This document shows positions 30,617 through 60,980 of a DNA stretch of 64,000 nucleotides, piece after piece. Position 1 is the stretch's first letter, and each line of letters opens with the position of its first letter. The position numbers and the translations under genes are program-made. The notes below the pieces were generated by a model, which saw only the letters and a list, made by a program, of their open reading frames with translations, ran no database searches and was not told the origin of the DNA. Origin of the DNA: Bacillota bacterium (GTDB lineage Bacteria; Bacillota_I; Bacilli_A; RF39; UBA660); assembly GCA_015059285.1 (NCBI GenBank), contig SVAS01000003.1, positions 2,679-66,678 of the forward strand, in the 5' to 3' direction.

Positions 30617-30620
30617 ATAT

Positions 30621-31796: not shown

Positions 31797-31894
31797 ATGA
31801 TCACCTACTTTATATGTTATTTTTACGAAATCAATAATATTATAACATACGATGTAACCAAATACTACTATAACAAAATTTTAAAATATTATTA

Positions 31895-31918
31895 AATAAA
31901 AAGATGGTTAAACCATCT
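31895..31918 (-). terminator. Terminator after the aph-like gene (copy 2 of the identical 24-nt element)
   Basis: The same 24 nt as 30593-30616. It overlaps the aph stop codon and ends the long operon. Confidence 0.7.
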
Positions 31919-32703
31919 TATAAATATAATTGCATCATTAATAAATAATATTCTATTTTATGATAATCTGGAATTATTCCTAACTCTTCATAAAATTTTT
32001 CAACATATTCTTTACCAAAGTTTCTAACAATTGATTTTTGACAAATAGCAAGGTCAAACCATTTATCAGCAATACCACATTCACCTACATCAATAAATCC
32101 TGAAAAATTATCATTTAAACAAAATATATTAGGTAAACTAGTGTCTCCATGTGAAAAAACTAGTTCTTCTTCAAATCTATTATCATCTAAATATTTAATA
32201 ATTTCTTCTAATGAATTAAATTTGTCTTTTACAGCTTCTGGTAACTCGTTATAATTAATTAAACCTTCTTTAACATTAGTTTTTACTAAATTAAGTTTAT
32301 AATCTAAAGCTACATTCATAGGACAATTAGAAATATCTACACTAGTAATTTTTTTAAATGCTTGGGCTATTATTTTAATACCTAAATTTGGATTTTCTAA
32401 CATATTTTTAGAACAAACCATTTCACCTAAAATAGCTTCTGTAATTAAAAATTCAGTACTATTATCTACATCATAAAGAACTACTTTAGGAACTTCAAGT
32501 TTTCCTTCAAGCCATTTTAAAGCATTATATTCTTTTGTAAGTAAGCCTTCACTTGCCATTTTAATAAAAAATATTTCATTGTTTTTTTTTATTTCAAAAA
32601 CTTGAGAATCAGAACATCCAATTCCTATTTCTTTTAATTCAGCGTTTTTTAAAAAGTTCTCTACTTTACTACTTAATTTATAATTAAATTTCATGACTAT
32701 CAT
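31918..32703 (-). CDS. Aminoglycoside 3'-phosphotransferase family kinase (APH(3')-III-like)
   Basis: Collinear matches to my recollection of APH(3')-IIIa: WLEGKLEVPKV, SVDISNCP, EEELVFSHGD..NIF, SGFIDVGECGIADKWFDLA, LGIIPDYHKIEYY. Confidence 0.85.
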   Translation of the reverse strand: MIVMKFNYKLSSKVENFLKNAELKEIGIGCSDSQVFEIKKNNEIFFIKMASEGLLTKEYNALKWLEGKLEVPKVVLYDVDNSTEFLITEAILGEMVCSKNMLENPNLGIKIIAQAFKKITSVDISNCPMNVALDYKLNLVKTNVKEGLINYNELPEAVKDKFNSLEEIIKYLDDNRFEEELVFSHGDTSLPNIFCLNDNFSGFIDVGECGIADKWFDLAICQKSIVRNFGKEYVEKFYEELGIIPDYHKIEYYLLMMQLYL

Positions 32704-32704
32704 C

Positions 32705-34357
32705 CTATCTTTTTCTATCTGAAGGAGTATTAGTTAATCTTTTTTGTTTACTTTCTTTAAAGTAATCATAATTTCCTAAATATTGAACAATTTGTTCTTC
32801 TTCAATATTAACTACTCTTTGAGCAAGTTTATTAATAAAATATCTATCATGAGATATAAAGAATAATGTACCTTTATATTCATTTAAAGCTTCTTCTAAT
32901 ATTTCTTTTGTATCAATATCTATATGGTTAGTAGGTTCATCTAGTATTAATAGATTAGCCTTCTTTTGAATTAATTCAAATAATTTTAATCTTACTTTTT
33001 CTCCACCTGATAATGTACCAACTCTTTTAAATACATTTTCACCATAGAATAAGAATTTGGCTAGAGTAGCTCTAAGACGAGTTTCATCACCATCAAATAC
33101 TTTTCTAGCTGTATCTAATATAGTAGCTTTATCATCTTCAAATTTTATTTCTTGAGGAATATAACCGATACTTACATTACTTCCTACTTTAATTGTTCCT
33201 TGACTTATATTATCTCCATTTAATATAGCTTTAATTAAAGTTGACTTACCTGTTCCATTTTTACCCATCATACATACTTTTTCGCCATATTTAAGGCTCA
33301 TTGAAGCTCCATCAAATAAAACTCTATCGCCTAATATAATACCTAAATCATCGATAACTAAAACATCGTTCCCAGATCTTCCTTTTATTTCAAAATCAAG
33401 AGGAATTTGTTTTTTACTATCTGGTCTATCCAAAATTTCCATTTTTTCTAGTTTTCTTTCAATACAAGCAGCTCTTCTAAAAAATCTAGGGTTATCTCCA
33501 CGTTCTCCCCATTCTTTTAATTTTTTAACAGCAGCTTTCATTGCTTCAATTTGTTTTTGTTGTGTTTTATATTCTTCAAATTCCGCTAAAGCTCTTCTTT
33601 CACTTTCTTCTAAATAATAAGAATAGTTTCCATGATAAACTTCAGCTTTCCCTTTATCCATTAAAACTGTTTTAGTGGCTACTTTATCTAAAAAATATCT
33701 ATCATGTGAACTAATAATAATTGTTCCTTTATAATTTGATAAAAATTGTTCAAACCATTCTAATGTGTCTATATCTAAGTGATTAGTGGGTTCATCTAAA
33801 AGTAATATATCAGGATTACTAATAATAAGTGAAGCTAAATTAACAATTGTTTTTTCTCCACCTGATAATGTATTAAAATATCTATCTAACATATTATCAT
33901 TTATTTTAAATCCTCTACAAATTTTACTTACTTGTTCATCTATTTCATATCCGCCCATCATAGCAAATTTTTCTTGTAATTGTCCATAACTTTTAAGAAT
34001 AGAATCTAATTTAGATGGATCAATATTCGCCATCTTTTGTTCATATTCTCTTAATTTTTTTTCTATTTCAAAAATTTCTTTAAAACTACTAAGTAATATA
34101 TCTCTTACTGTACAATCATCAGTTACTTTAGGAGGCATTTGTGAAAGCATTCCAATAGTTGCGCCTTTACGAGTTGCAACCATTCCTTTACTTACTGTTT
34201 CTTTACCTATAATTACATTAAATAAAGTAGTCTTACCACAACCATTAGGACCTATTAAAGCTATTCTTTCCCCTGTATTTGCTTCCAAATCAAATTCATC
34301 TAAAACATTTTTAAAACCAAAACTTTTTACAGCTTTATTTACACTAATATCTATCAT
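32705..34357 (-). CDS. ABC-F family ATPase (no membrane domain), candidate ribosome-protection protein
   Basis: Two NBDs (GPNGCGKTT, GKNGTGKST; LSGGEK twice; LLLDEPTNHLD/LILDEPTNHID) joined by a charged helical linker. The ATG at 34357 is preceded by GAGGTGAG. Confidence 0.88.
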   Translation of the reverse strand: MIDISVNKAVKSFGFKNVLDEFDLEANTGERIALIGPNGCGKTTLFNVIIGKETVSKGMVATRKGATIGMLSQMPPKVTDDCTVRDILLSSFKEIFEIEKKLREYEQKMANIDPSKLDSILKSYGQLQEKFAMMGGYEIDEQVSKICRGFKINDNMLDRYFNTLSGGEKTIVNLASLIISNPDILLLDEPTNHLDIDTLEWFEQFLSNYKGTIIISSHDRYFLDKVATKTVLMDKGKAEVYHGNYSYYLEESERRALAEFEEYKTQQKQIEAMKAAVKKLKEWGERGDNPRFFRRAACIERKLEKMEILDRPDSKKQIPLDFEIKGRSGNDVLVIDDLGIILGDRVLFDGASMSLKYGEKVCMMGKNGTGKSTLIKAILNGDNISQGTIKVGSNVSIGYIPQEIKFEDDKATILDTARKVFDGDETRLRATLAKFLFYGENVFKRVGTLSGGEKVRLKLFELIQKKANLLILDEPTNHIDIDTKEILEEALNEYKGTLFFISHDRYFINKLAQRVVNIEEEQIVQYLGNYDYFKESKQKRLTNTPSDRKR

Positions 34358-34399
34358 TTTCTCACCTCGCATCAAATGAAATTCAAATTAAACAAGCAT

Positions 34400-34408
34400 A
34401 TTATAACA
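34400..34408 (-). promoter_or_regulatory. Possible extended -10 promoter (TGTTATAAT) upstream of the ABC-F/APH pair
   Basis: The minus-strand TGnTATAAT element lies in the 54-nt gap between the DegT-like gene and the ABC-F start. No good -35 is present. Confidence 0.3.
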
Positions 34409-34411
34409 CAA

Positions 34412-35452
34412 TTATTTATCTTTTTCTATGGTGTCAAATATTTTTTGTAAATTCTTTATTTGCTTATTTATTTTTACATTTCTAGTTCTAAGTAATATAA
34501 CCTGTTTATCACTGTTTTTTAAGTTATATATTTTACTATTTTTTAAACTTGGTAATCCATAATTAGGAACTTTATGTTTTTGTTGATATTCTAATTTATA
34601 TAATTTAGAAAGACTTATAAATTTATTATAACTATCGCGATCCAAAAGAATAGGGAAACGATGCCATACATTAGAATATATATTATCTTTAGTTGCAATC
34701 ATTTCGATATTTCTATTTTTTAATTCTATAAAGTACTTAAATGCATTTTTTCTTTGTTCTTTAACTACTTTATTACCTATTTTTATAAGTTTTTTCAAAT
34801 TAATTTTATGACAAAGTGGATATAAATAAGAATATATTAAATTATTTTGTAATCTACTTTCATTATCACAAAAATCAAAGTATTTATAATATTCTTTATT
34901 ATTAAAAAACATACCCCCACCAATTCCATAACTTAGTGGTTTAGTGTGTCCAAAAGAAGTTACGACTATATCAGCATCTTGGCATTTTAAAATATTCCAC
35001 GATTGTGCTATATCTTCAATTATTTTAATACCCATTTTTTTATACTTTTTTTTATCTAAGTTATGTAGTATACCGTACTGATGAACTAACAAAATGCAGT
35101 CTATTTTTTGCTTTTTTATTACTTCAGAAATTTCTTCATCTGTTAATATTAAGTTATCTTTAGGTACAACAATAATAGGATTATAATTTAACTTTTTAAT
35201 TGTACTCATAATAGAATAACATACTTCTGAAGAAACCAATATATTGGCTTTTTCTTCTAAATTTAAACATTTAAAAGCAAGTTCAATTGCAAGTGTTCCA
35301 GAATATGTTATTACTCCATACTTCTTATTAAAATATTTAGCTAAAGCATTACCTAATTTTTGATTACTTTTTCTCACTTTTTCCACTCCTTCATTTTTTA
35401 CAATGAAATACATGTTTATGTTCAAAACCTGGTGCTCCATACCCATCATCAA
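34412..35452 (-). CDS. DegT/DnrJ/EryC1/StrS-like PLP enzyme (short form)
   Basis: YSGTLAIELAF, IIEDIAQSW and VVTSFGHTKPL (candidate PLP lysine) in family order. The N-terminus is shortened and the start is uncertain (35452 or the Met at 35413). It overlaps the upstream methyltransferase gene. Confidence 0.65.
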   Translation of the reverse strand: MMMGMEHQVLNINMYFIVKNEGVEKVRKSNQKLGNALAKYFNKKYGVITYSGTLAIELAFKCLNLEEKANILVSSEVCYSIMSTIKKLNYNPIIVVPKDNLILTDEEISEVIKKQKIDCILLVHQYGILHNLDKKKYKKMGIKIIEDIAQSWNILKCQDADIVVTSFGHTKPLSYGIGGGMFFNNKEYYKYFDFCDNESRLQNNLIYSYLYPLCHKINLKKLIKIGNKVVKEQRKNAFKYFIELKNRNIEMIATKDNIYSNVWHRFPILLDRDSYNKFISLSKLYKLEYQQKHKVPNYGLPSLKNSKIYNLKNSDKQVILLRTRNVKINKQIKNLQKIFDTIEKDK

Positions 35453-36110
35453 TTTTTAATATTGATAATAAATTATTTAAAGTATTTAAAACAAAATACT
35501 CATCATAATATAAATATTTTTCTTTTTCTATCACTATCTTTTGACTATTTACTAAGTGATATTTAATTATAAATTCTATATAATTACTTTTTCTTATAGA
35601 AGTATAATAAACTTCTACTTGTTCTTTTAATTCACTATGTTCTTTCGTAAATAGTAATTGTTCTTTGATTTCTGGTTTTTTATTAAAACTTTCGGATAAA
35701 TCAAATAAAACAATTGTTTTTTCGTTACATATCTTATAGATTTGTTTAATCATTTCTATGAATTTATTTTTATCACCAGAAAACTGTAAAGTACTATAAG
35801 GAACTATAATTAAATCAAAATCTTTTTTTATAGGATTATAATTTATAAAATCACAACATACTACATTAATATTACTAGTTTTCTTTTTTAAAAGATTTAA
35901 TCTTTCTAAATCCATATCTAACGCTGTAACTTGAGCATACTTGCTTAAAGGAATAGCAACTCTTCCGGTACCTGCTCCTATAATAAGTACATTCTTTGCC
36001 TTATAAAATTTCATTTGTTTTATATAATAATTAATGTCATCATTTTGACCTCTTAAAGTACATTCATTATAAAAATCATACATAAGAGCTAATAATTCAT
36101 TATCATTCAT
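35391..36110 (-). CDS. Class I SAM-dependent methyltransferase
   Basis: Motif I VLIIGAGTGRVAIPL and post-I LDMD. The ATG at 36110 preceded by AGGGGT is preferred over the start at 36137. Confidence 0.8.
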   Translation of the reverse strand: MNDNELLALMYDFYNECTLRGQNDDINYYIKQMKFYKAKNVLIIGAGTGRVAIPLSKYAQVTALDMDLERLNLLKKKTSNINVVCCDFINYNPIKKDFDLIIVPYSTLQFSGDKNKFIEMIKQIYKICNEKTIVLFDLSESFNKKPEIKEQLLFTKEHSELKEQVEVYYTSIRKSNYIEFIIKYHLVNSQKIVIEKEKYLYYDEYFVLNTLNNLLSILKIDDGYGAPGFEHKHVFHCKK

Positions 36111-36117
36111 AATACCC

Positions 36118-37080
36118 CTACTTTTCTCCATAATCATATAAATTTAAATAAGGTTTATTTTCTTTATTCCAATGCATATTATAAAATCTACTTTGATAAG
36201 TTCCGAAAGAAATATTAAAGTCTTCTATACTTTCAAATACAGAACCTTCAAAATCTACATATTTAACAATATCATTTTCAATAAAAAACTTAAATATTTG
36301 ATGATATAAAAACGCTATAGCAACATCATCTTGTTTTTCTTCATAATATGAATAAAGTATATAGGCTGTTTTTTTGTCCCATGCCATATGAACTCCGCCT
36401 ACGACTTTACCATTTTCTAAAGCTACAAAACACATTCCACGATTATGTTTAATAGTTTTTCTAATATAATCTTTAACATCTAATGCAGTAGATTCATAAT
36501 TATATTTTGCTTCCCATTTCATAGCTTTATTAGTATCAAAATATTTAATATCTTTATCAACTACAAACTCATAATTTCTCTTTATTGCTCTTTTTATATC
36601 TTTTTTTCTATCGCTACCATAATTTTTAAAAATTTCTTCTATTCCTTTAGATAAATCTAATTTATAAGTATATCTAACTTCTGGAGTAAAATTATTTCTA
36701 ATAAATGGCATAATATCAATAATTTCATTATCTATAGAAAAATCCGCACTCTCAAAATTTTCTTTAATAAATTTACACAATACTTTTTCTACATTTCTAA
36801 TATATCTTATTTTATTACGATTTTCTTTAGGCAAATTAAATATAACAGGTCCACCATAAGGAATATACATAGTACTTTGAAAAATAATTTTAGAATTTCC
36901 AGAATTAAAATAAGGCATAAATCCTTGTAATTCATTTTTATCATTTAATATTTTTAAAATTTTATTACTATTTTTAAACTTCAAAAACCAAGAATAAGCA
37001 AAACAAGTTCCATTAAAACTATTATCTATAAGCTCATCTATATTTTTAAGTTCTTCTATATTTCCAAATTCTATATGCAT
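36118..37080 (-). CDS. FemAB/Acetyltransf_6-like GNAT-fold acyl or aminoacyl transferase
   Basis: 320 aa. The pattern ...RKKDIKRAIKRNYEFV..., CFVALENGKVVGGVHMAWD and VDFEGS...FNISFG resembles FemX/CelD-like two-lobe GNAT proteins. Confidence 0.55.
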   Translation of the reverse strand: MHIEFGNIEELKNIDELIDNSFNGTCFAYSWFLKFKNSNKILKILNDKNELQGFMPYFNSGNSKIIFQSTMYIPYGGPVIFNLPKENRNKIRYIRNVEKVLCKFIKENFESADFSIDNEIIDIMPFIRNNFTPEVRYTYKLDLSKGIEEIFKNYGSDRKKDIKRAIKRNYEFVVDKDIKYFDTNKAMKWEAKYNYESTALDVKDYIRKTIKHNRGMCFVALENGKVVGGVHMAWDKKTAYILYSYYEEKQDDVAIAFLYHQIFKFFIENDIVKYVDFEGSVFESIEDFNISFGTYQSRFYNMHWNKENKPYLNLYDYGEK

Positions 37081-37083
37081 AAA

Positions 37084-37920
37084 TTACTCCTTTGAAATTA
37101 TTATATGACATCTTTTTATTTCATTATTTTTTAAATCATCATATGTCTTATTTCTTCTTCCCCAAAAATCTAAACTCAAAATACTAGAAACACTATATAA
37201 ATATTCAATATGATTAAATAAGCAAAAAAATCCAGCACATTCTTTTCTACCTTCATACGAAGAACCCCATTTTACATTAAACCAAGTGTCTTTATTTTTA
37301 AACATTAAAGTATACCCTAAAGGAATACCTTTTTTATAAATAACTTGTAAGCTTGTTTCTAAAGGATTATTTAATAACATTGGAAGGTACTGTAAATCTT
37401 CCCTATCCAAACTTTTCATATCTGAATTTTCTTCCCTTTTCCAAGAGTTATAATCAATTACTAATACATCTTTCCATAATCTTAAAACATCTTCATTTTT
37501 AGAATTTTTTATTTGAAATTTTTCTTTATTTTTTATATATTTCTTATAATTCTTTTTAATTTGATTAGAACTTAACGTATCAATATAAACATTTAAAGGT
37601 GTATTTAAATCTAATAAAGGAGAATCCCAACAATCAAGCTCTTCAAATTTAAAGTTATTTTTTCTTGCCCAAATTTTTAATCTTTCAATACTTTCTTGAT
37701 TATCAAAGTAACTAAATCTTACTTTTTTATTATTTTCTATTTCCTTTTTAATTTGTTCTAAGACTTTTTCACTTATATTAAAGTTAAAGAAGTTTTGGCA
37801 CTTTAAAATACTCTTATCTTCATAAAAATATAAATTATCATATACTTTTATTTTATCTATATCATATCTTATATATAATGCATTTATCCAATCAGAACTC
37901 ATCGTAAAATTAAAGTTCAT
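37084..37920 (-). CDS. Acetyltransf_6 (CelD/BioF2-like) GNAT-fold transferase
   Basis: 278 aa. The C-terminal YKKGIPLGYTLMF...SLDFWGRRNKTYDDLK resembles the PF13480-type D-x-G-x-G...YK signature. Confidence 0.5.
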   Translation of the reverse strand: MNFNFTMSSDWINALYIRYDIDKIKVYDNLYFYEDKSILKCQNFFNFNISEKVLEQIKKEIENNKKVRFSYFDNQESIERLKIWARKNNFKFEELDCWDSPLLDLNTPLNVYIDTLSSNQIKKNYKKYIKNKEKFQIKNSKNEDVLRLWKDVLVIDYNSWKREENSDMKSLDREDLQYLPMLLNNPLETSLQVIYKKGIPLGYTLMFKNKDTWFNVKWGSSYEGRKECAGFFCLFNHIEYLYSVSSILSLDFWGRRNKTYDDLKNNEIKRCHIIISKE

Positions 37921-39127
37921 CTTTGTACTCCTTTAAACATTTTATAATATATTTAATATGTTTATTTTTTAAAGAAGCAGATAAGTTGTAAAACGCTACT
38001 CTTTTAAATAAAGAATATGAATAAGATAAATCACTTTCTCGATAATGACTTACATTATAAGGAAATCCACTTGTATGCCATGATTGTTTTTTTATAAATG
38101 TATCAAAATTAGAAATTAAATTACTACAATATAAATTAAAACCAATTCCCTTATTATTCATTTTTTTAATAAAATCTGAACACTCTTTTTCAGATTTAAA
38201 CTCTATAGCAAGGCTTGTAAATATCGGTTTAGAACCTATTACAAATGGTCTAATATTATAAAATTTGGTATCAATATTATTTACAATTTTATAATAAGTA
38301 TCATTTTGTTTCCTAATAATTTTTTCAATTTTATTTAATTGTTCTAAAGCTATAGCACTTTGAATTTCAGTTATTTTAAAGTTTTCTCCAAAAAAAGTTT
38401 TTCCATTTTCCCAAGTTGGATAATTACAACCATTTCGGTATCCTCCATTATCATGGTACATTTTAGCTTTTTCATATACTTGTTTATTGTTGGTTGCTAA
38501 AAATCCACCTTCACCGCAAGTAATTGTTTTCCCAGCTTGAAGACTAAATGCTCCAATGTTTCCCAAAGTCCCTACCTTTTTATTATTGATACTTGCTCCA
38601 AAAGCTTGAGCTGTATCTTCAATAACTACTAAGTTATGTTTTTTAGCAATTTTATTTATTTCTATCATATTACAAGGTTGTCCTTGCATATGAATAGCCA
38701 TAATAGCTTTTGTTTTATCAGTAATCTTTTCTTCTATTTTTTTATAATCTATATTCATAGTATTATCTATATCTACAAATACAGGAATAGCACCACAAGA
38801 TAGCACTTCGCTTGCTGATGCTATAAATGTAAAAGGTGACATTATAACTTCATCCCCACATCCTATATCACTCGCAATACAAGCAAGTTTTAAAGCAGCA
38901 CCACCACTTGTACAAGCAAGTACATATTTAACGCCTAAATATTCGGCCAAATTCTTTTCAAACTTGTCTGTTTTATATTGTAAATTAGGACCATGATATC
39001 TAAATAAACTTTTACTTTTTAAAACTTTTTTTACTGCTTTAATCTCTTCTTTACCGATATAATGAGTACCAATAAAAGGATCATTTGGAATCTTCACAAA
39101 AATCCCCCCTTTACTTATTTTCTTCAT
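37910..39127 (-). CDS. DegT/DnrJ/EryC1/StrS family sugar aminotransferase
   Basis: 405 aa. CTSGGAALKLA, DEVIMSPFTFIASA, VIEDTAQAFGA and FSLQAGKTITCGEGG (PLP lysine). Confidence 0.85.
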   Translation of the reverse strand: MKKISKGGIFVKIPNDPFIGTHYIGKEEIKAVKKVLKSKSLFRYHGPNLQYKTDKFEKNLAEYLGVKYVLACTSGGAALKLACIASDIGCGDEVIMSPFTFIASASEVLSCGAIPVFVDIDNTMNIDYKKIEEKITDKTKAIMAIHMQGQPCNMIEINKIAKKHNLVVIEDTAQAFGASINNKKVGTLGNIGAFSLQAGKTITCGEGGFLATNNKQVYEKAKMYHDNGGYRNGCNYPTWENGKTFFGENFKITEIQSAIALEQLNKIEKIIRKQNDTYYKIVNNIDTKFYNIRPFVIGSKPIFTSLAIEFKSEKECSDFIKKMNNKGIGFNLYCSNLISNFDTFIKKQSWHTSGFPYNVSHYRESDLSYSYSLFKRVAFYNLSASLKNKHIKYIIKCLKEYKDEL

Positions 39128-40232
39128 ATATTATTTTAGCTATTTTAAAAGCTGCATCTTTTTCAAATTCATTAAAATAAGTGTTTCTTTTTTCAAAATA
39201 TTTTTCTTGATTAGAATTTAAATATTTACTAATTATTTTATTAACACTTTCTTTATAATCATAATCTAAATATTGTTTTATATTTTCTAAAACCATATCT
39301 ACTCCAGATTTTTCATCTAAATACATAGGTATTTCTTTATAAAAATTAAAATTATCCCAATTTAATATATCAAAACCAAAATCCATTTTTCTATAGTAGT
39401 TTAATTGTAACATCTGACTATAATTTATAGCAGGCAAATACATAATATTTTTATTTTCATTAATTGTTTCTATAAAATTACCAAGTCCTGATGACATAAT
39501 ACAGTGACTGGATTCTTGCATACATTTTAAATATTCTTCATTTGATAAAGTTTTAATAAATACTTTATCATTTTCTTTATCTAATTTAATATTATTAATT
39601 ACTTTGCTACCACCACAAATAATAATTTTATCAAATTTATTTATTTCGTTTGTAGAAAGAATTTCATTAATAATTTTATTATAAAATTTATTTATTATAG
39701 TTTGATCAAATAGAAATGATGAAGCCCCACCTAAATTAATAATTAATTGATTTTTAGTTTTGCCTTTATAAGAGTTTTTTAAATTTCTAACAGGTCCTAA
39801 AAATATAGGATTATCAATAACATGACCAACTCTATCAAAGTTTTCTTTACATGAGAATGTTTCTGATATAAAGAACTTCTTAACTTTACCTAACTTTTCT
39901 GGTATTTCATCCCACATCCATACTAAGTTATCAACATAATAAACATTCTTTATATAATCTAAACTGAAGATTGCTCCATTAATATTTTCACTTGAAAAAT
40001 AGATATCATATTTTAAAAATACATCTTTATGTTTTTCTAAATCAACCATGTCAAAAGTATCGCACTCATAAAATTCATTAAAATATCCACTCATTTTAGC
40101 TTGTTCTAAAGAAATTCCTGAACCGATAAAATCAACAATTACATCAGGATATTTAATTAATTCTTTTATAACATTAAGACAAGTCGCAATAGGACCATAT
40201 CCAAAACTTTCAGCTGATACTAATATTTTCAT
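39111..40232 (-). CDS. GT-B fold glycosyltransferase (GT1/GT28-like)
   Basis: N-terminus MKILVSAESFGYGPIATCL. The C-terminal HCIMSSGLGNFIETINENKNIMYLPAINYSQ fits the H-x4-G-x-G-x3-E...P...Q nucleotide-sugar motif of GT1/MurG-like enzymes. Confidence 0.55.
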   Translation of the reverse strand: MKILVSAESFGYGPIATCLNVIKELIKYPDVIVDFIGSGISLEQAKMSGYFNEFYECDTFDMVDLEKHKDVFLKYDIYFSSENINGAIFSLDYIKNVYYVDNLVWMWDEIPEKLGKVKKFFISETFSCKENFDRVGHVIDNPIFLGPVRNLKNSYKGKTKNQLIINLGGASSFLFDQTIINKFYNKIINEILSTNEINKFDKIIICGGSKVINNIKLDKENDKVFIKTLSNEEYLKCMQESSHCIMSSGLGNFIETINENKNIMYLPAINYSQMLQLNYYRKMDFGFDILNWDNFNFYKEIPMYLDEKSGVDMVLENIKQYLDYDYKESVNKIISKYLNSNQEKYFEKRNTYFNEFEKDAAFKIAKIIYEENK

Positions 40233-40234
40233 TT

Positions 40235-41254
40235 TTATAACTCCTTTATTTTAAAATAACATTTATTAAATTGACAATTAGCTTCATCACACTTTTTCTT
40301 GCAATCAAGCTCACTATTTAATAATTTTGTTTGTAATTCACTTCTTTTTGAACCATTCCAAATTTCTGTAAATGTTTCATTATGTAATTCACCAATCTTA
40401 TATATAGTTCTATCTCTATGGATACTACAATCACAAGGATATACAAATCCTGTTGGAGCATCTATAAAAACGCAATATGATGGATAAACACATTTTAAAT
40501 CTAAATTAATACTTCTATCTCCATTTGAATTAATTTCTTTTTTAAAAAAATTAATATCACTACATAAAAATTCTATACCTAATGAAGCAGATAAACTTAA
40601 ATAATAATCTAAATTATTATTATAATTATTCATTTGTTCTTCTGTAAAAAATAAATCATCACAATCTTTAATAATTATTGGATTAATATAGTCAAAATCA
40701 AATCTTTCTTTTAACCTAATAAAACTTTCAAAATCATCTATATTTTTTTTATTTAATACGTGGTTAATTGCTACTTTAGTATTTGGCATATATTTTTTTA
40801 TTAAATTAATATTACGAGTAACAATATCCCATAAACCAACTACTCTTCTCAGTTCATCATGTATTTCTGCATTAAAACTATCAATTGAAAAAAACACTGC
40901 ATTTATATCATAAGTAGCTAATTTTTTTATTTTTTCTTCATCTAAATTTAAACCATTTGAAATAACATTTATATGAATACCTTTTTTAGTAGCATATTCA
41001 ATATATTTAAATATATCATCATTAATAAAAGGCTCTCCACCACCTGTAAAATGAATATATTTAGTCCCAAGTAAGCTTAATTCATCTATTAATTTAAATA
41101 CATCTATAGAACAATTTTTTTCTTTATTCTCCCTTACATCACAAAAAACACAATTAGCATTACAAAGATTACTTAAAGATAAATAAGCATAATATGGTTT
41201 GTCATAAAACTTTAGTAAGTCTTGTTTTTTTTCTTTTAGTAATTTCAAATACAT
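40235..41254 (-). CDS. Radical SAM enzyme with C-terminal SPASM/twitch-like Cys-rich domain
   Basis: CNANCVFC (CX3CX2C), the GGGEP SAM-binding motif, and C-terminal cysteines (CVYPSYC...CDC...CKKKCDEANCQFNKC). Confidence 0.88.
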   Translation of the reverse strand: MYLKLLKEKKQDLLKFYDKPYYAYLSLSNLCNANCVFCDVRENKEKNCSIDVFKLIDELSLLGTKYIHFTGGGEPFINDDIFKYIEYATKKGIHINVISNGLNLDEEKIKKLATYDINAVFFSIDSFNAEIHDELRRVVGLWDIVTRNINLIKKYMPNTKVAINHVLNKKNIDDFESFIRLKERFDFDYINPIIIKDCDDLFFTEEQMNNYNNNLDYYLSLSASLGIEFLCSDINFFKKEINSNGDRSINLDLKCVYPSYCVFIDAPTGFVYPCDCSIHRDRTIYKIGELHNETFTEIWNGSKRSELQTKLLNSELDCKKKCDEANCQFNKCYFKIKEL

Positions 41255-41256
41255 AG

Positions 41257-41724
41257 TTACACCTCATTTAAACCATCCAATATTCCACTTATTGTTTGTA
41301 ACATTGAATCATTTAAAAAATCATTACATTTATAATATTTAGTATTAGTTAAAGTATCTAATCCCATAACAACTGGAGAATACATAAAATTATCTTCTAC
41401 TAAAATGTGTAAATCTTTTTTTAAAGCGGATGCCCAACCTAACTCAATATGAACTCCACCACTTATTCCTTTAGATAAATGATTACCAGGTATTACTATA
41501 ATAGCATCACTAGATTTAATTCCTTCATAATCACTTAAAGTACACTCTTGAGGTCCCTTATGATCTACTCCCCAATTTTCTCTTTTTATAGCTAAATAAT
41601 AATCAAAACCCTTATTAGTAATCAAATTAATTAAGTTTTCAAAAAACGGCTGATATTCTTTTTTTACAACATAATTTTCTTCTTCACATAATCCAGTAAA
41701 TGGACAAGATATAAATACTTTCAT
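41257..41724 (-). CDS. Nucleoside 2-deoxyribosyltransferase-like (candidate nucleotide N-glycosidase)
   Basis: 155 aa. MKVFISCPF ..., SDAIIVIP and GGVHIELGWASALKKDLHIL follow the PF05014-type pattern (D...G...E.G.A). Confidence 0.55.
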   Translation of the reverse strand: MKVFISCPFTGLCEEENYVVKKEYQPFFENLINLITNKGFDYYLAIKRENWGVDHKGPQECTLSDYEGIKSSDAIIVIPGNHLSKGISGGVHIELGWASALKKDLHILVEDNFMYSPVVMGLDTLTNTKYYKCNDFLNDSMLQTISGILDGLNEV

Positions 41725-41731
41725 TTTTTTC

Positions 41732-42610
41732 CTACCTTCTAAAATATTTTTTCTTTGTTAATAATTTATCTGTTAATGATGTTTCACTTATGCATAAATT
41801 ATTATTAATTCCGGTTGCAATAAATCTTCCATCAGTATTTACTAAACGGTGAAAATCACTTCCAACAGAAGTTAATAAATCATGTTTTTTAGCAATATCA
41901 TATAACCAAATAGTATCTTTTTTTAAGCAATCTGATTGATATATTTCTATTCCATCTATTCCCATAGAAATAAGTTTGTGAGTAATAACTTCAACTTCTG
42001 CTTTATCTAATTTATAAGCCATAGGATGAGCAAAAACAACATATCCTCCAGCAGAATGTATAGCATCAATTACATGTCTAACAGAAACTTCATAATCTTC
42101 GCCATAACTAAATCTATTAGCTTTATAATAAACTCTTAACTTATCTATTGATTCTTTTGAATAATTACCCTCTTCAAAACATTTAATAATCTCTCTATCA
42201 AACCAACAATAACGGCTAAAATTTAAATAGCCAATTTCCTCTTCTGGTAATACTTTTACCATTTCTTTTACCTTTTTTACTACGCTCATATGAGCATCTA
42301 TTCTTTTATCTTTCATTTCATTTAATAACTCTTCTAATTTATGGTTATTTTCATTAAAACCATAACCTAGAATATGTAGTTTTATTTTCTTATTGTTAAT
42401 TACTATATAAGAAGAAAACTCAACTCCATTTATGCCAACTAAACCCTTTTTAATACTTTTTTTAAATTCATTCAAACCTTCAATTGTATCATGATCAGCA
42501 ATTGATAAAATTTTAGTACTGTTATCATTTGCTAGTTCAATAATTTCTGTCGGAGTAAAATATCCATCTGAATTATTTGAATGAACATGCAAATCAATGT
42601 ATTTACTCAT
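41732..42610 (-). CDS. PHP-domain phosphoesterase
   Basis: YIDLHVHSNNSDGYFTPTEII...SIADHDTIEG, then FAHP and GSDFH metal ligands. The ATG at 42610 is preceded by GAGGTGA. Confidence 0.85.
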   Translation of the reverse strand: MSKYIDLHVHSNNSDGYFTPTEIIELANDNSTKILSIADHDTIEGLNEFKKSIKKGLVGINGVEFSSYIVINNKKIKLHILGYGFNENNHKLEELLNEMKDKRIDAHMSVVKKVKEMVKVLPEEEIGYLNFSRYCWFDREIIKCFEEGNYSKESIDKLRVYYKANRFSYGEDYEVSVRHVIDAIHSAGGYVVFAHPMAYKLDKAEVEVITHKLISMGIDGIEIYQSDCLKKDTIWLYDIAKKHDLLTSVGSDFHRLVNTDGRFIATGINNNLCISETSLTDKLLTKKKYFRR

Positions 42611-42630
42611 AAGTATCACCTCTAATTATA

Positions 42631-42660
42631 ATTATATAGACTTATCTGTAATTTGACCAA
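42631..42660 (-). promoter_or_regulatory. Candidate promoter of the 12-gene operon
   Basis: Minus-strand TTGGTC (42655-42660), an 18-nt spacer, and TATAAT (42631-42636), 20 nt upstream of the PHP start codon. Confidence 0.4.
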
Positions 42661-42683
42661 TACCTAAATCTTATATGTTATAA

Positions 42684-42697
42684 GTTATAATTATAAC
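42684..42697. promoter_or_regulatory. Perfect 14-nt palindrome GTTATAATTATAAC, possible LysR-type operator
   Basis: It lies just upstream of the candidate -35 and downstream of the lysR-family gene. It is AT-rich, so a chance occurrence is possible. Confidence 0.3.
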
Positions 42698-42729
42698 AAA
42701 AAAAGGAAACTTTAATTATTTCCTTTTTT
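42698..42729 (-). terminator. Hairpin around the LysR stop codon
   Basis: 9-bp stem aaaaggaaa/tttcctttt with flanking A and T runs. Confidence 0.5.
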
Positions 42730-43614
42730 AAATATATTTACAAAATCTTTGACAATATCATGATTAAATTTTTTATTGTATGCTACACTAACAGGGATAA
42801 ATACTTTATCAATATCAACATTAACTTCAAATAATTTACCATTTTCAATATCTTCTAAAACAAAATTTTTAATCATCCAGCCAATTCCAATTCCTTTACT
42901 GATTATGCCTTTTGAAACAGAAGATGAATTAGCTTCAATTAAAGGATTTAATACTATTTGTTTTTTCTTAAAATACATATCTATCATTTTTCTATTGGCG
43001 GTATGTGGTCCAGGTAAAATTAATGGATAATTTACTAATTCAGAAGCCTTTACTATCTCTTTTTCTGCAACACTCTTAAATTGCTCACTACATACAAAAC
43101 AACTTTCCAAATTAAGAATATCATATTTAGATAAAGGAGAACCATCTAAATCAGGCATATCAGTATCAATAACAATATCCAGTTCTCTTTTAGTTAGCAT
43201 CTTTAACATTTCTTCAGATTTCTTATTAACAATATTAATTCTTATATTGGGGTATTTTTCATTAAAAATTTTCAAATAATTAACAAAATAAAATGTCCCT
43301 ATATGAGTAGGCACCCCAATATTAATAATATCAAAAGAAGCCTCTTTTGCTTTATCTAACATCTCTTGATTTGCGAGTGCAAGTTCACAAAGTTTTTCAG
43401 AATAATAATAAACTACTTCACCAGCCGGTGTTAACTCAATCCCTTTAGAAGTCCTTTTAAAAAGTTCTAAATTTAATTGTTCTTCTAATTTTTTTATTGC
43501 TTGAGTTACTGCAGGTTGTGAAATATATAACTCATGTGAAGCTTTAGTAAAACTTTTGTATTTTCCTACTATATAAAATGTTTTATATAAATTTAAATCA
43601 ACATTCAAATTCAT
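42712..43614 (-). CDS. LysR family transcriptional regulator
   Basis: N-terminal wHTH (FTKASHELYISQPAVTQAIKKLEEQL) plus a periplasmic-binding-like effector domain. 300 aa. Confidence 0.9.
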   Translation of the reverse strand: MNLNVDLNLYKTFYIVGKYKSFTKASHELYISQPAVTQAIKKLEEQLNLELFKRTSKGIELTPAGEVVYYYSEKLCELALANQEMLDKAKEASFDIINIGVPTHIGTFYFVNYLKIFNEKYPNIRINIVNKKSEEMLKMLTKRELDIVIDTDMPDLDGSPLSKYDILNLESCFVCSEQFKSVAEKEIVKASELVNYPLILPGPHTANRKMIDMYFKKKQIVLNPLIEANSSSVSKGIISKGIGIGWMIKNFVLEDIENGKLFEVNVDIDKVFIPVSVAYNKKFNHDIVKDFVNIFKKGNN

Positions 43615-43685
43615 ACTACACCTCCAACACTATATTGTTTAATAAATTTATTATATCATATGGGGGTCTTTATCTGCAACACAAC

Positions 43686-43716
43686 AAAAAAAGGTTAACG
43701 TAAATTAACCTTTTTT
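43686..43716 (-). terminator. Terminator after ssrA
   Basis: 8-bp stem aaggttaa/ttaacctt flanked by A and T runs (bidirectional appearance), 40 nt downstream of the tmRNA CCA end. Confidence 0.65.
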
Positions 43717-43756
43717 ATATATATTAAAGCGATTTTCTTTAGCTATTTTTTTATTT

Positions 43757-44097
43757 TGGTGGAGCTGAGGAGAATCGAACTCCTGTCCAAAAATATATTC
43801 ATATAAATTTCTACAAGTTTAGTCAGTTAATAAAATTCCTAGATAAACTGATAACTAACAATCTATTTTCTAGTAAGCCTATAAAATTCATTATTACTTC
43901 TAGGCGCCGTAATAATATATCCCATTAAATCGAGCCTCTTAAAAACTCCATGGGAGAAAGTTTATAAGAAGCAGCCTCCATTATATTAAGCGAAAGCTAA
44001 TTGATTTCTGTTTCCAGTTATTTTTTGTTTGCACTTAACGCGTGCCTTCGACTTGCCATCTATACTTCAATATTTCTGTCGAAACCTAAACAGCCCC
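43757..44097 (-). ncRNA. ssrA: tmRNA (ssrA)
   Basis: Minus-strand 5' end GGGGCTGTTTAGGTTTCGAC and 3' end GGAGTTCGATTCTCCTCAGCTCCACCA (T-arm, acceptor, CCA). The internal tag frame is AAAAATAACT|GGA AAC AGA AAT CAA TTA GCT TTC GCT TAA. Confidence 0.93.
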
Positions 44098-44191
44098 ATA
44101 AATGTATAACCATTATAGCATACTTACAAAAAAAATCAAATATACATAGCACACTAATAAACTCTTTTCATAAAATATTAAAGGTGATTAT

Positions 44192-45112
44192 ATGAATATT
44201 GATTATAGCTTTGGAAATCAATACTACCAATATTTTGGTGATAAAGGAATTAAAAGTATAGAATATAATATTTTAGCCCCTGAACAGGAACAATTAATCC
44301 AACCAGGAATGGAATACATAATGACACCTAGACCTATTTTTGATAATCCTAATTATATAGGAAGTAATAAATTAAAAGATAAGGTGGCAATTATTACTGG
44401 TGGAGATAGCGGTTTAGGAAAAGCTGCTGCCATTGCATTTGCTAAAGAAGGCGCTAAAATTTTAATACCTTATTATAATGAACATAGAGATGCTTTAGAA
44501 ACAAAAGAATATATAGAAAATCTGGGTGGAATATGTGAAATAATTTCTGGAGACATTGCCAATAAAAATTTTTCTAACCAAATAGTGAATTGTGCTTTAG
44601 AAAAATTTGGTAAAATTGATATATTGGTTAATAACGCTGGTGTACAATACCAACAAGATAGTTTAGATTGTATATCAGATGAACAATTTGACCAAACTAT
44701 GAAAGTTAATGTTTATGGAATGTTTTATTTAACTAAAGCTGTTTTACCTTATTTAAAACCCGGTTCATCTATCATTAATTTATCTTCTGTAACAACTTTC
44801 TATGGTGAACCACAACTTATAGATTATGTAACTACTAAAGGGGCTATTGTAGGTTTTACTCGTTCACTTGCTCGTAATTTAGCTCTAAAAAACATTAGAG
44901 TTAATGCGATTGCTCCTGGATTTTTTTGGACACCTTTACAACCTGCATGCTGGGTAAAAGAAAAAATACCTTCATTAGGAGCTGATGCAGCTATGGCTAG
45001 AGGAGCTATGCCGTATGAATTAGCGCCAACATTTGTTTTTTTAGCTAGTGATGATTCTAGTTATGTAACTGGGCAAGTAATTCATAATAATGGTGGTCAA
45101 ATAATGGGATAA
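44192..45112 (+). CDS. SDR family oxidoreductase (YdaD/YhxC/YghA-like general stress type)
   Basis: ITGGDSGLGKAAA, NNAG and YVTTKGAIV (YxxxK). The N-terminal extension MTPRPIFDNPNYIGSNKL is typical of this subgroup. Confidence 0.85.
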   Translation: MNIDYSFGNQYYQYFGDKGIKSIEYNILAPEQEQLIQPGMEYIMTPRPIFDNPNYIGSNKLKDKVAIITGGDSGLGKAAAIAFAKEGAKILIPYYNEHRDALETKEYIENLGGICEIISGDIANKNFSNQIVNCALEKFGKIDILVNNAGVQYQQDSLDCISDEQFDQTMKVNVYGMFYLTKAVLPYLKPGSSIINLSSVTTFYGEPQLIDYVTTKGAIVGFTRSLARNLALKNIRVNAIAPGFFWTPLQPACWVKEKIPSLGADAAMARGAMPYELAPTFVFLASDDSSYVTGQVIHNNGGQIMG

Positions 45113-45157
45113 AAATAAAAAGTAGCTAATATTGTAATTAATATTAGTTACTTTTTT
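45113..45157. terminator. Bidirectional terminator between convergent genes
   Basis: 13-bp stem agtagctaatatt/aatattagttact (one G-T pair), flanked by A-run and T-run. Confidence 0.65.
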
Positions 45158-45692
45158 ATGCATGACTTAATACATATCTTAAAGCTTTTTGTGGTGAACC
45201 ATAAGAAAGAGAATAACTCATACTTCCTACTATATGTTCTTGAACTAAAGATACTTCTTTTTCTTCACCTAATTCATGTACAGGAACCATAATAAATTTT
45301 TCTTGTTTTAATCTAGGAATAAAAGATTCATTAAATTCTATTTTATATTTTGTTTCATAATTATATGATTTTAACAAAAGATCATAATCTGTATTAACAT
45401 TTATTTTTCTTAAAGAACTCACTAAAACTTTTAATTGCTGAACTGACATAGGTTGAAACATTTTAAATAATAATGCCTCTGGTATTCTAAATAAAATATG
45501 AAGTGGAACGTATGTCAAAAGATCTTTAAAGTTTTGTTCAAATGGTAATGAAAGCGCCATATTCAAAGGCATTCCAATAAGCATAGATAAAGATGAATAA
45601 ATACAAACTCTTTTAGTAAGTCTTGTTAATGAAAAACCTTTTTTTGCTTCCTCCATTTTTTCAAACAAATCATAATTAATTTTTATTTTCAT
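45156..45692 (-). CDS. Hypothetical protein
   Basis: 178-aa ORF with no recognisable motif and one hydrophobic stretch (VCIYSSLSMLIGMPLNMALSL). Confidence 0.4.
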   Translation of the reverse strand: MKIKINYDLFEKMEEAKKGFSLTRLTKRVCIYSSLSMLIGMPLNMALSLPFEQNFKDLLTYVPLHILFRIPEALLFKMFQPMSVQQLKVLVSSLRKINVNTDYDLLLKSYNYETKYKIEFNESFIPRLKQEKFIMVPVHELGEEKEVSLVQEHIVGSMSYSLSYGSPQKALRYVLSHA

Positions 45693-45701
45693 AAATATAT
45701 T

Positions 45702-46199
45702 TTATTTTTGATCTTTCCCAAATTTTTTAATAAATCTTTTAATAACATTTTTTTCACGCAGTTCTTTTGGAAACGGCATTTTTAATTTGCCTGACATAAA
45801 TAAGAATACGTCACTTAATGAATGCATTTTAAATTCTAATAAATCACATTCATCTGATAAACTTGCATTTTTCTTTCTATCTTCCATAGACATCGCATTA
45901 TATTTTTCTGCTAATTTATTTCTTTTATCACAAATATCTTGTCCCATTTGCATTATTTCTTCATCTTTTAAATCTTTTACTTGGTTATAATCAATCATCC
46001 AATCTAAACCTTTAAAAAATTCTATTTCATAACACTTGTCAAATTTTACAAATTCATATCTATTTCTGTTATCAATTATAACAATACCTTCACCATATAC
46101 TTTTTCAAAAATAGTTGCTGGTATTGGCAGCTCTGTATGAGTTAAATATGCTATATCATTTTTTTGTACATATGCAGCATTTTCTGTTATTATTTTCAT
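45702..46199 (-). CDS. Hypothetical protein
   Basis: 165-aa ORF with no recognisable motif. It lies 9 nt upstream of the previous ORF, so the two are probably co-transcribed. Confidence 0.4.
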   Translation of the reverse strand: MKIITENAAYVQKNDIAYLTHTELPIPATIFEKVYGEGIVIIDNRNRYEFVKFDKCYEIEFFKGLDWMIDYNQVKDLKDEEIMQMGQDICDKRNKLAEKYNAMSMEDRKKNASLSDECDLLEFKMHSLSDVFLFMSGKLKMPFPKELREKNVIKRFIKKFGKDQK

Positions 46200-46324
46200 A
46201 AAATCCCCTCCTAAGCGAAAACTATAATATCATAATTTATGTTAAACTTCTAGTCATTTACATAAATTTTTATATTAAATTTAACGATTTAGAATTTATA
46301 TGTTATAATTTTAGTGGTGATAAT

Positions 46325-46633
46325 ATGAAAATATATAATAAATTAGTCAGAGATAAAATTCCTGAAATAATGATTAAAAATGGTGCAAAACCTGTAACTA
46401 AAATTCTAAGTGACGAAGAATATAAATTAGAACTAAATAAAAAACTTTTAGAAGAAGTAAATGAATATTTAGAAAGTGATGATATTTTAGAGCTTGCGGA
46501 TATTCAAGAAGTATTACTAGCCCTTATAAATACTACTAATATGACTTATGAGGAATTTGAAAAAATAAGAAAAGAAAAAGTTTCAAAAAGAGGTGCTTTT
46601 GATAATAAAATTTTTTTAGAAAAAGAAGAGTAA
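46325..46633 (+). CDS. MazG-like / PRA-PH-like nucleoside triphosphate pyrophosphohydrolase (small all-alpha type)
   Basis: MKIYNKLVRDKIPEIM N-terminus and the EEVNEYLES...ELADIQEVLLAL pattern (EExxE...D) of this family. Confidence 0.7.
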   Translation: MKIYNKLVRDKIPEIMIKNGAKPVTKILSDEEYKLELNKKLLEEVNEYLESDDILELADIQEVLLALINTTNMTYEEFEKIRKEKVSKRGAFDNKIFLEKEE

Positions 46634-46634
46634 T

Positions 46635-46669
46635 AAAAAAAGGAAATAATTAATTTTATTTCCTTTTTT
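46635..46669. terminator. Bidirectional terminator between the MazG-like gene and smpB
   Basis: 10-bp stem aaaggaaata/tatttccttt flanked by A and T runs. Confidence 0.65.
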
Positions 46670-60979: not shown

Positions 60980-60980
60980 A

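Follow-up and report, generated by a model that had tools for sequence, protein, structure and literature searches.

A putative biosynthetic operon for a peptidyl-cytosine nucleoside of the cytosylglucuronic acid type in uncultured gut Bacillota

Introduction

What kind of molecule is built by a run of nucleoside- and sugar-modifying enzymes in a low-GC gut bacterium? The question is raised by a 64,000-nucleotide stretch of contig SVAS01000003.1 from a Bacillota bacterium (the window). In it, an initial annotation had noted four consecutive enzyme classes at 37910-42610 which parallel the logic of blasticidin S and mildiomycin biosynthesis, and had proposed that an amino-sugar nucleoside is made from a nucleotide-derived base. 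What is known of nucleoside antibiotics of the cytosinine or cytosylglucuronic acid (CGA) type, such as blasticidin S, mildiomycin and arginomycin, and of how they are made comes, to our knowledge, almost wholly from Streptomyces. The open reading frames (ORFs) proposed at 37910-42610 are real, and the functional unit is larger, spanning 31901-43614. Probably, with a likelihood of roughly two in three, this unit is an operon, LysR regulator included, whose enzymes make a peptidyl-cytosine pyranosyl nucleoside of the CGA type that has not been described before. The observations are presented in turn and concern gene content, homologies, conserved residues, predicted folds, synteny and gene fusions.

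Results and Discussion

The four-enzyme core

The families and ORFs of the four consecutive enzymes were all recovered as annotated (Table 1). The 155-residue protein scored slightly below the gathering score of Pfam Nuc_deoxyrib_tr (25.6 bits against 28.8, E 1.5e-5). In a PDB sequence search at E<=10, its only real matches were BcmB (1.6e-24), MilB (6e-17) and BlsM (1.9e-16), the closest solved relative, BcmB, being a C. botulinum protein. The grouping with deoxyribosyltransferases or LOG proteins which the initial annotation had considered was not seen in this search, nor was any grouping with Rcl. Sikowitz et al. reportedly found in 2013 that F17 of MilB, a Phe replacing the Tyr of nucleoside deoxyribosyltransferases (NDTs), sets the specificity for ribo- versus deoxyribonucleotides. 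In MilB, F22 stacks on the base, E62 reads N4 and N3 of cytosine, D78 contacts both ribose and base, S97 and G99 bind the phosphate and E103 is the catalytic nucleophile (PMC4081090). The equivalents of these seven residues in the 155-residue protein are F4 (F17), F9 (F22), E49 (E62), D65 (D78), S88 (S97), G90 (G99) and E94 (E103), so that the catalytic Glu and the phosphate-binding residues on which the proposed comparison with BlsM and MilB turned are present. Six of the seven positions were invariant in 25 homologues from related loci, and F9 was kept in 24 of them, the exception being an Ile in locus L026, where the N-terminus is probably mis-called or broken.

The same alignment bears on the substrate. 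Arg23 of MilB reads the 5-hydroxymethyl group; BcmB has Lys at this position, and BlsM, which is specific for CMP, has Met (PMC4081090). This position is Thr in the 155-residue protein and Thr, Ala or Ser, with one Leu, among the 25 homologues checked. As the Arg/Lys position is Thr and no thymidylate-synthase-like hydroxymethylase of the MilA type is present in the cluster, the substrate would be cytidine monophosphate (CMP) rather than 5-hydroxymethyl-CMP. The enzyme is thus predicted to release free cytosine from CMP.

For the glycosyltransferase (GT), no Pfam match and no meaningful PDB match by sequence were obtained. Its sole meaningful NCBIfam match was the CGA synthase model TIGR04467 (E 4.5e-4, 19.5 bits), whose equivalog cutoff is 300 bits. 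CGA synthase was also the top NCBIfam family in 24/24 aligned relatives (best E 3.4e-11) and the only family common to all 24. At 90% clustering the GT has 116 relatives, all unnamed and without Pfam domain. When 1.84 billion representative proteins were searched with a profile, 1041 relatives were returned. In this wider family, 31 of 115 full-length members matched CGA synthase at E<=1e-20, the best at 2.4e-39, and no other family was matched. No relative examined reached the 300-bit cutoff. By these sequence comparisons the family stands beside the CGA synthases as their sister group and is not BlsD/MilC itself, and the GT is predicted to couple cytosine to a UDP-hexuronate.

Gene fusions connect this GT to its neighbours. 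Five representative proteins of the wider family are NDT-GT fusions (NDT-family HMM E 1e-13 to 1e-28), and two GT-DegT proteins and one GT-radical SAM/SPASM protein from metagenomes also belong to it. These three kinds of fusion tie the four activities to one pathway. In the operon itself the GT and glycosidase genes are separated by the radical SAM gene alone.

The radical S-adenosylmethionine (SAM) enzyme found its best solved relative in BlsE, at 3.6e-15 in a single-sequence PDB search. With a family profile, BlsE (7vob) was again first at 1.4e-20, followed by SkfB (1e-13) and BtrN (5e-9). The top positions of CGA synthase and BlsE speak against the possibility, named in the initial annotation, that the nearest relatives of the GT and the radical SAM enzyme lie in unrelated pathways. 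Residues C31, C35 and C38 (CxxxCxxC) are invariant in the homologues and a GGGEP motif is situated at 71-75; the Cys cluster and GGEP motifs of BlsE were shown to be essential by mutagenesis (PMC3715490). The residue ahead of the last cluster Cys is Phe here and Met in BlsE. A weak second alignment brings the region of the invariant C255, C274 and C276 onto the C-terminal Cys region of BlsE. The enzyme is predicted from its sequence relatives to act on C4'/C3' of a hexuronate nucleoside. On one metagenome contig whose GT is identical to that of the window (L036:2013-3004), the radical SAM gene is called in two pieces of 139 and 186 residues, representing either a frameshifted allele or an assembly error.

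The presence of BtrN among these matches brings in a different sugar chemistry. BtrN is a twitch/SPASM radical SAM dehydrogenase, and an enzyme of this type would convert the 4'-OH to a 4'-keto group without 3'-deoxygenation, as in a gougerotin- or bagougeramine-like pathway. The product would carry a 4-amino-4-deoxy-hexuronate keeping its 3'-OH, which an APH(3')-type kinase could phosphorylate, and the kinase of the cassette indeed belongs to the 3'-O-phosphotransferase family. Bagougeramines are, moreover, cytosine nucleosides from a Bacillus. However, BlsE is clearly the better match, the weak second alignment reaches its C-terminal Cys region too, and the gougerotin-type pathways known to us proceed by NAD-dependent oxidation and have no radical SAM enzyme. 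A BtrN-type dehydrogenase is considered unlikely, and the BlsE-like function is retained in what follows.

The DegT protein was recognized by Pfam PF01041 with 290.5 bits against a gathering score of 19.8 and matched many keto-sugar aminotransferases in PDB, up to 6e-58. All 30 homologues keep its Schiff-base Lys (FSLQAGK), and the enzyme is predicted to perform the 4'-transamination. A second, divergent DegT-like protein (Pfam DegT 76.8 bits) also aligns to sugar aminotransferases and keeps the Lys of SFGxTKP in all 21 homologues. Both genes probably start further downstream than listed. Some identical contigs have the DegT gene with 395 and not 405 residues. The TTG start listed for the DegT-like gene makes it overlap the methyltransferase gene by 62 nt, and since its homologues have 318-327 residues the true start is probably downstream of this TTG. 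In the methyltransferase the GAGTGR motif is invariant; the gene is present in 21 of the loci retrieved and absent from the Clostridia and Paenibacillus variants described below.

Two tandem-GNAT proteins

The initial annotation had placed acyl transferase candidates and a methyltransferase downstream of the core. The methyltransferase was recovered as a class I enzyme, and the transferase candidates could be specified further as FemX-like tandem-GNAT folds. By sequence they are nearly silent. The 278-residue protein had no Pfam, NCBIfam or PDB sequence match, and the 320-residue protein had a single sub-threshold match to the Pfam GNAT family PF13480 (E 0.0047). Neither matched Pfam FemAB or, even with family profiles, any PDB sequence, and a profile-profile comparison between the two was not significant.

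AlphaFold2 models were built for both proteins from alignments of database homologues. A double-GNAT fold was obtained in each case, with a model confidence (pLDDT) of 93 for the 278-residue and 85 for the 320-residue protein. The top Foldseek matches of the 320-residue model were Sbb17/Sba18 and FemX (E ~1e-12, TM-score 0.68-0.76); Sbb17 and Sba18 are aminoacyl-tRNA-dependent peptide synthases which were solved with the amino sugar streptothrisamine. For the 278-residue model the aminoacyl-phosphatidylglycerol synthase domain of MprF, FemX and Sbb17/Sba18 were found (E ~1e-8, TM-score ~0.6). GNAT-fold aminoacyl-tRNA transferases occur in several natural-product pathways, such as Orf11 acting on streptothrisamine, PacB, DhpH/DhpK and VlmA (PMC12945691). 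From the models we infer two tRNA-dependent aminoacylations of a 4'-amino nucleoside, the fold alone being compatible with acyl-CoA donors as well.

ABC-F protein, APH-type kinase and PHP phosphoesterase

Three further proteins suggest what the product acts on and how it is handled by the producer. The 556-residue ABC-F protein scored 439.8 bits with the ribosomal-protection model NF000355, above its cutoff of 380. It contains Pfam ABC_tran twice and ABC_tran_Xtn, with no membrane domain, and stayed below the cutoff of every named antibiotic-resistance subfamily (Msr, Vga, Lsa, Sal, OptrA). Its gene is kept at the same cassette position with 65-82% identity, and the protein is predicted to protect the ribosome of the producer as a self-resistance determinant. 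The 261-residue kinase scored 219.9 bits with the APH(3') model NF033068 (cutoff 205), no allele-level model being reached, and all homologues keep its HGDxxxxN and DVG motifs unchanged. In 19 loci its gene closes the cassette; the Clostridia variant has it as well, next to the PHP gene. By family, the kinase is predicted to phosphorylate the product or an intermediate. The ABC-F and APH genes are constant members of the cassette and always stand where the operon ends. Both had escaped the initial annotation, and their conservation points to a ribosome-targeting product.

The PHP phosphoesterase had been correctly placed ahead of the core and is confirmed by Pfam PHP. It scored 128 bits with the NCBIfam model for RNase RNM and 125 bits with that for 3',5'-nucleoside bisphosphate phosphatase, both below cutoff, its resemblance being to nucleoside 3',5'-bisphosphate phosphatases and RNase AM-type enzymes; the DxHxH..SDG motif is invariant in 27 homologues, and an alternative ATG start at 42610 would give 292 residues. 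The enzyme may remove the phosphate installed by the APH-type kinase, in a protect-and-deprotect scheme, or may alternatively supply CMP. Cryptic phosphorylation is known in the nikkomycin and polyoxin pathways. In capuramycin biosynthesis, self-resistance comes from phosphorylation of the hexuronate 3''-OH by CapP/Cpr17, whose annotation is that of aminoglycoside phosphotransferases (PMC6384614).

Distribution, synteny and cluster variants

Species-representative genomes were scanned with the GT profile, which yielded 30 loci, and these were searched by tblastn with every protein of the window. The same twelve-gene order, LysR, PHP, CMP glycosidase, radical SAM, GT, DegT, 278-residue protein, 320-residue protein, methyltransferase, DegT-like, ABC-F and APH, was found in about 22 species of uncultured gut metagenome-assembled genomes (MAGs). 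Their taxonomic labels read Bacilli, Erysipelotrichaceae, Tenericutes or Mycoplasmataceae, and goat, rabbit and human are among the hosts whose guts they come from. The best GT match in the scanned genomes was 68% identical. Catalytic motifs of every enzyme were invariant among the homologues, and the ORFs of the window are all of full length.

The genes around the cassette are not shared. The window neighbours GT4, MurL, MurD and a short-chain dehydrogenase/reductase (SDR) were absent from all other cassette loci, and the flanks of locus L002 were likewise absent from the rest. Because flanking genes differ between loci, the conservation is specific to the cassette; and because the order recurs in about 22 species with different flanks, together with the fusions of core enzymes, the arrangement is not due to chance. 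Across loci, the identity to the window of LysR, PHP, ABC-F and APH tracks that of the core enzymes with rho 0.74-0.85 (LysR 0.85; ABC-F and APH 0.74). These values fit inheritance as a unit, and a shared species phylogeny would give the same. An accessory gene of 295 residues without Pfam match (L002:14845-15732, with equivalents in L007, L013, L017 and L018) is situated either between the methyltransferase and DegT-like genes or between the LysR and PHP genes in other loci and is absent from the window.

The four-gene core was kept in three different cluster architectures. Clostridia MAGs retain glycosidase, radical SAM, GT, DegT, both tandem-GNAT proteins, DegT-like, PHP, APH and ABC-F; the methyltransferase is lost and a small GNAT is gained. 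Two cultured Paenibacillus isolates, Paenibacillus faecalis (L001/L032) and P. periandrae (L031/L037), keep the four-gene core only, in otherwise different clusters. One of these carries a phosphotransferase resembling pyruvate phosphate dikinase (PPDK) or phosphoenolpyruvate (PEP)-utilising enzymes, DUF1152 and an EEP phosphatase, and the other an aldo-keto reductase, a class III aminotransferase, a small kinase, a GNAT and an arginase-family protein. Each of the two clusters again includes a kinase beside the core, in P. faecalis together with a phosphatase. The Paenibacillus strains are tractable sources from which the product of the core could be identified.

A separate metagenomic cluster (L039:1190-16867) contains an NDT-GT fusion, two radical SAM genes, one of them BlsE-like, DegT and ABC-F. 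Alongside these stand a guanidino-type N-methyltransferase, an ATP-grasp (LAL_C2) gene, an AAT-family acyltransferase and an amidohydrolase. The fusion protein has a faint precomputed Pfam match to PF27895 'CGA_synth-rel', and the cluster looks closer to blasticidin logic. Its ABC-F protein, from this independent blasticidin-like setting, is 44% identical to that of the window. A literature search gave no description of such a cluster in Firmicutes, rumen or gut, its incomplete coverage making this weak evidence of novelty.

The stability of the gene set also bears on a quite different explanation, that the locus makes an aminoglycoside-like pseudo-oligosaccharide or a cell-surface amino sugar, the NDT-like protein serving salvage and ABC-F and APH being acquired resistance genes nearby. 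2-Deoxy-scyllo-inosose aminotransferases and PseC/perosamine synthases are among the PDB relatives of the DegT enzymes, aminoglycosides are the classical substrates of APH(3'), and an operon lacking an exporter would agree with this. But no sugar-phosphate cyclase, nucleotidyltransferase, polymerase or flippase accompanies the genes, in the NDT-like protein, which is fused to the GT elsewhere, the Glu specific for cytosine is retained along with the remaining CMP contacts, and ABC-F and APH remain with the cassette in differing contexts and in the rearranged variant. Such a product is regarded as highly improbable. A bacimethrin-like pathway to a free modified pyrimidine antimetabolite, for which the top rank of BcmB and the presence of a methyltransferase could be cited, was rejected, as there is no thymidylate-synthase-like CMP hydroxymethylase and no ThiD-type kinase, the hydroxymethyl-reading Arg/Lys is lost in the 25 homologues (PMC4081090), and the conserved GT, radical SAM, DegT and FemX-like genes would be left unexplained.

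Proposed pathway

The preferred reading, a CGA-type peptidyl-cytosine nucleoside, agrees with the order accepted for mildiomycin and blasticidin, namely CMP glycosidase, CGA synthase, radical SAM enzyme (4'-oxidation and 3'-dehydration) and C4' aminotransferase, which in the mildiomycin pathway follows the logic MilA-MilB-MilC-MilG-MilD (bioRxiv 10.64898/2026.02.25.707955). By homology of the core to BlsM/MilB, BlsD/MilC, BlsE/MilG and BlsH/MilD, the proposal of an amino-sugar nucleoside pathway starting from a nucleotide-derived base is supported. Substrates, step order, the product as a ribosome-targeting antibiotic and its target are deduced from these relationships as follows. The 155-residue N-glycosidase would split CMP into cytosine and ribose 5-phosphate, and the CGA-synthase-like GT would join the cytosine to a UDP-hexuronate, for which UDP-glucuronate is the probable candidate. 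A 4'-keto sugar would then be formed by the BlsE-like radical SAM enzyme, which would most likely also remove the 3'-OH in the way of BlsE and MilG, and DegT would transaminate C4'. The FemX-like enzymes would pass amino acids from aminoacyl-tRNAs to the new amine and then to the first residue or a second site, and the methyltransferase and the second DegT-like enzyme, which would depend on pyridoxal phosphate (PLP), may tailor the molecule. The ABC-F protein would guard the ribosome of the producer. The APH(3')-type kinase and PHP may form a phosphorylation and dephosphorylation pair, serving self-protection or a cryptic protecting group.

Several observations weigh against this pathway. The GT scores 19.5 bits where its equivalog model requires 300. 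The radical SAM enzyme scores 62.9 bits with TIGR04466 (cutoff 400) over the N-terminal 128 residues only, and several unrelated SPASM models of NCBIfam score as high as or higher than rSAM_BlsE on the shared N-terminal core. The structural matches of the two tandem-GNAT proteins share 8-15% identity with them, so that tRNA dependence rests on fold, and tandem GNATs using acyl-CoA also stand, lower, in both Foldseek lists. Of the tailoring genes of blasticidin and mildiomycin, ATP-grasp ligase, arginine aminomutase and guanidino methyltransferase are absent from 31901-43614. Neither a UDP-glucose 6-dehydrogenase nor a membrane exporter was found in the operon or in the window. Lastly, all hosts of the twelve-gene form in the species-representative scan are uncultured MAGs with no product known.

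With scores so far below the equivalog cutoffs, the GT and the radical SAM enzyme are distant relatives and not orthologues of their counterparts, and a different acceptor, donor or chemistry is therefore possible. The likeness to blasticidin S and mildiomycin logic, offered at first at the level of enzyme classes, accordingly extends to true sequence homology and stops short of orthology for these two enzymes.

A more far-reaching version is that the cassette represents a new natural-product family, in which tRNA-dependent peptidyl-cytosine nucleosides are phosphorylated by APH inside the producer, unmasked by PHP and matched by a dedicated ABC-F guard. This is put forward tentatively, as a possibility with the odds against it. 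If it is true, uncultured Bacilli of humans, ruminants and rabbits would have a widespread, gut-native translation inhibitor, and the cassette would be a natural reservoir of the ABC-F/APH resistance pair.

On the preferred reading, CGA-type chemistry would be brought to anaerobic, low-GC, never-cultured gut bacteria and would be joined there to tRNA-dependent peptide bond formation and to an ABC-F/APH pair. Should the product be a translation inhibitor, it would be an accessible new scaffold, encoded by 11 small genes with no nonribosomal peptide synthetase (NRPS) or polyketide synthase (PKS), and a candidate mediator of gut competition, and it would account for where one lineage of resistance genes, those for ribosome protection and phosphotransferases, came from. 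For mechanistic work, the cassette offers distant and compact homologues of BlsD and BlsE.

Organization and genomic setting of the cluster

All cluster genes are situated on the minus strand, in a window of ~25% G+C, and the five ORFs of 37910-42610 are closely packed or overlapping (Table 1). The LysR-family protein is probably a pathway-specific regulator.

Table 1. Features of the 31901-43614 unit, listed from the LysR gene to the downstream boundary.
Feature	Coordinates	Strand	Basis
LysR-family transcriptional regulator	42712..43614	-	Pfam HTH_1 and LysR_substrate; first in cassette in at least 19 loci
PHP-family phosphoesterase, TrpH/YciV type	41732..42619	-	Pfam PHP
Predicted CMP N-glycosidase, BlsM/MilB/BcmB family, 155 aa	41257..41724	-	PDB matches and residue conservation
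Radical SAM/SPASM enzyme, BlsE/MilG-like	40235..41254	-	Pfam Radical_SAM and SPASM
Glycosyltransferase distantly related to CGA synthase (BlsD/MilC)	39111..40232	-	TIGR04467
DegT/DnrJ/EryC1 PLP-dependent sugar aminotransferase	37910..39127	-	Pfam, 290.5 bits
Tandem-GNAT, FemX/MprF-like putative aminoacyl-tRNA-dependent transferase, 278 aa	37084..37920	-	AlphaFold2 and Foldseek
Tandem-GNAT, FemX/Sbb17-like putative aminoacyl-tRNA-dependent transferase, 320 aa	36118..37080	-	AlphaFold2 and Foldseek
Class I SAM-dependent methyltransferase (tailoring)	35391..36137	-	Pfam Methyltransf_25/11/12
Second, divergent DegT-like PLP enzyme	34412..35452	-	Pfam DegT, 76.8 bits
ABC-F ATPase, ribosomal-protection type	32705..34375	-	NCBIfam NF000355
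APH(3')-family O-phosphotransferase	31918..32703	-	NCBIfam NF033068
Terminator-like hairpin and T-run at APH stop codon	31901..31919	-	Downstream operon boundary

The terminator-like hairpin closing the unit is one of two such sites in 13.6 kb, a number not above the mean of 1.8 in shuffled sequence. At the other end, the ssrA gene for transfer-messenger RNA (tmRNA; 43757-44097, minus strand, tag GNRNQLAFA) ends 143 bp upstream of the LysR gene, and the tmRNA's own terminator hairpin lies between them. An Rfam scan of 30000-47000 returned the tmRNA only, with no riboswitch or leader RNA. Insertion of the cassette as an island at tmRNA was considered as a general feature and rejected, no tmRNA being situated beside the cassette in 19 other loci; in the window the 3' end of the tmRNA is not repeated and no integrase occurs near the cluster.

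The window is chromosomal DNA of a spore-forming member of the Bacillota, in which SpoIVA, Der, YsxC, SmpB, RNase R, PolC, PolA, GatCAB and a number of aminoacyl-tRNA synthetases are encoded. Proteins identical to those of the window occur on JGI and ENA metagenome contigs, which we take from their sample naming to be ruminant gut assemblies.

A few other loci of the window deserve mention. Two overlapping genes at 27814-30511 (minus strand) encode a MurD-type ligase (TIGR01087, 298 bits) and a MurL-like protein of 448 residues, the latter scoring 263 bits with the Xanthomonadales MurL model (cutoff 700). MurL is a UDP-MurNAc-L-Ala-L-Glu epimerase, and the pair suggests that in this Bacillota genome the D-Glu of peptidoglycan is made by the alternative MurD2/MurL route. 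A conjugation-type gene block (53179-63824, minus strand), some 10 kb away from the cluster, comprises a coupling protein of a type IV secretion system (53179-55374), a 994-residue SpoIID-domain protein (56173-59157), a VirB4/TraG-like P-loop ATPase (59195-60979) and several ORFs without family match; it is a probable integrative conjugative element or its remnant. Two tandem tRNA-Asn(GTT) genes are situated at 20610-20766 (minus strand), downstream of a block of GatCAB, AsnRS and AspRS genes.

Comparison with known systems

The blasticidin S cluster of Streptomyces griseochromogenes has the same four-enzyme entry module (BlsM, BlsD, BlsE, BlsH). Like BlsM, which has Met there, the glycosidase carries a non-basic residue at the position of MilB Arg23 and is accordingly predicted to be CMP-specific; the radical SAM enzyme shares the C31/C35/C38 and GGEP motifs with BlsE, and the predicted product class, a ribosome inhibitor, is also the same. 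There are also differences. The GT and the radical SAM enzyme fall far short of the equivalog cutoffs, and the cassette has no arginine 2,3-aminomutase, ATP-grasp ligase or guanidino N-methyltransferase. Two FemX-like tandem-GNAT enzymes are predicted to attach the amino acids. The blasticidin resistance genes known to us encode a deaminase and an acetyltransferase, whereas the predicted resistance here consists of ABC-F and an APH-type kinase. The hosts here are low-GC gut Bacillota and not Streptomyces.

With mildiomycin (MilA, MilB, MilC, MilG, MilD), the cassette shares the MilB-MilC-MilG-MilD logic and all the CMP-binding residues of MilB. Unlike the mildiomycin cluster, it has no MilA hydroxymethylase, and Arg23 of MilB is replaced by Thr; a MilM-type arginine hydroxylase and machinery for the C5' side chain are also absent here. 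Because the tailoring genes are missing and the GT and radical SAM enzyme fail the equivalog thresholds, the unit is not a blasticidin or a mildiomycin cluster.

The tandem-GNAT fold of the 278- and 320-residue proteins is common to FemX and to Orf11 (Sba18/Sbb17) of BD-12/streptothricin-type pathways. Sba18/Sbb17 aminoacylate the amine of an amino sugar using aminoacyl-tRNA (PMC12945691). In contrast to these enzymes, the two proteins occur in tandem here and, at 8-15% identity, give no sequence-level match to them. The capuramycin-type clusters, with CapP/Cpr17, likewise contain a kinase of the aminoglycoside-phosphotransferase family in a hexuronate-nucleoside setting, a likeness by family only; the kinase here is paired with PHP and ABC-F, and the predicted target is the ribosome rather than MraY. 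Set beside these systems, the cassette is a CGA/cytosinine-type core joined to predicted tRNA-dependent aminoacylation and to an ABC-F/APH/PHP set, widespread in uncultured gut Bacillota.

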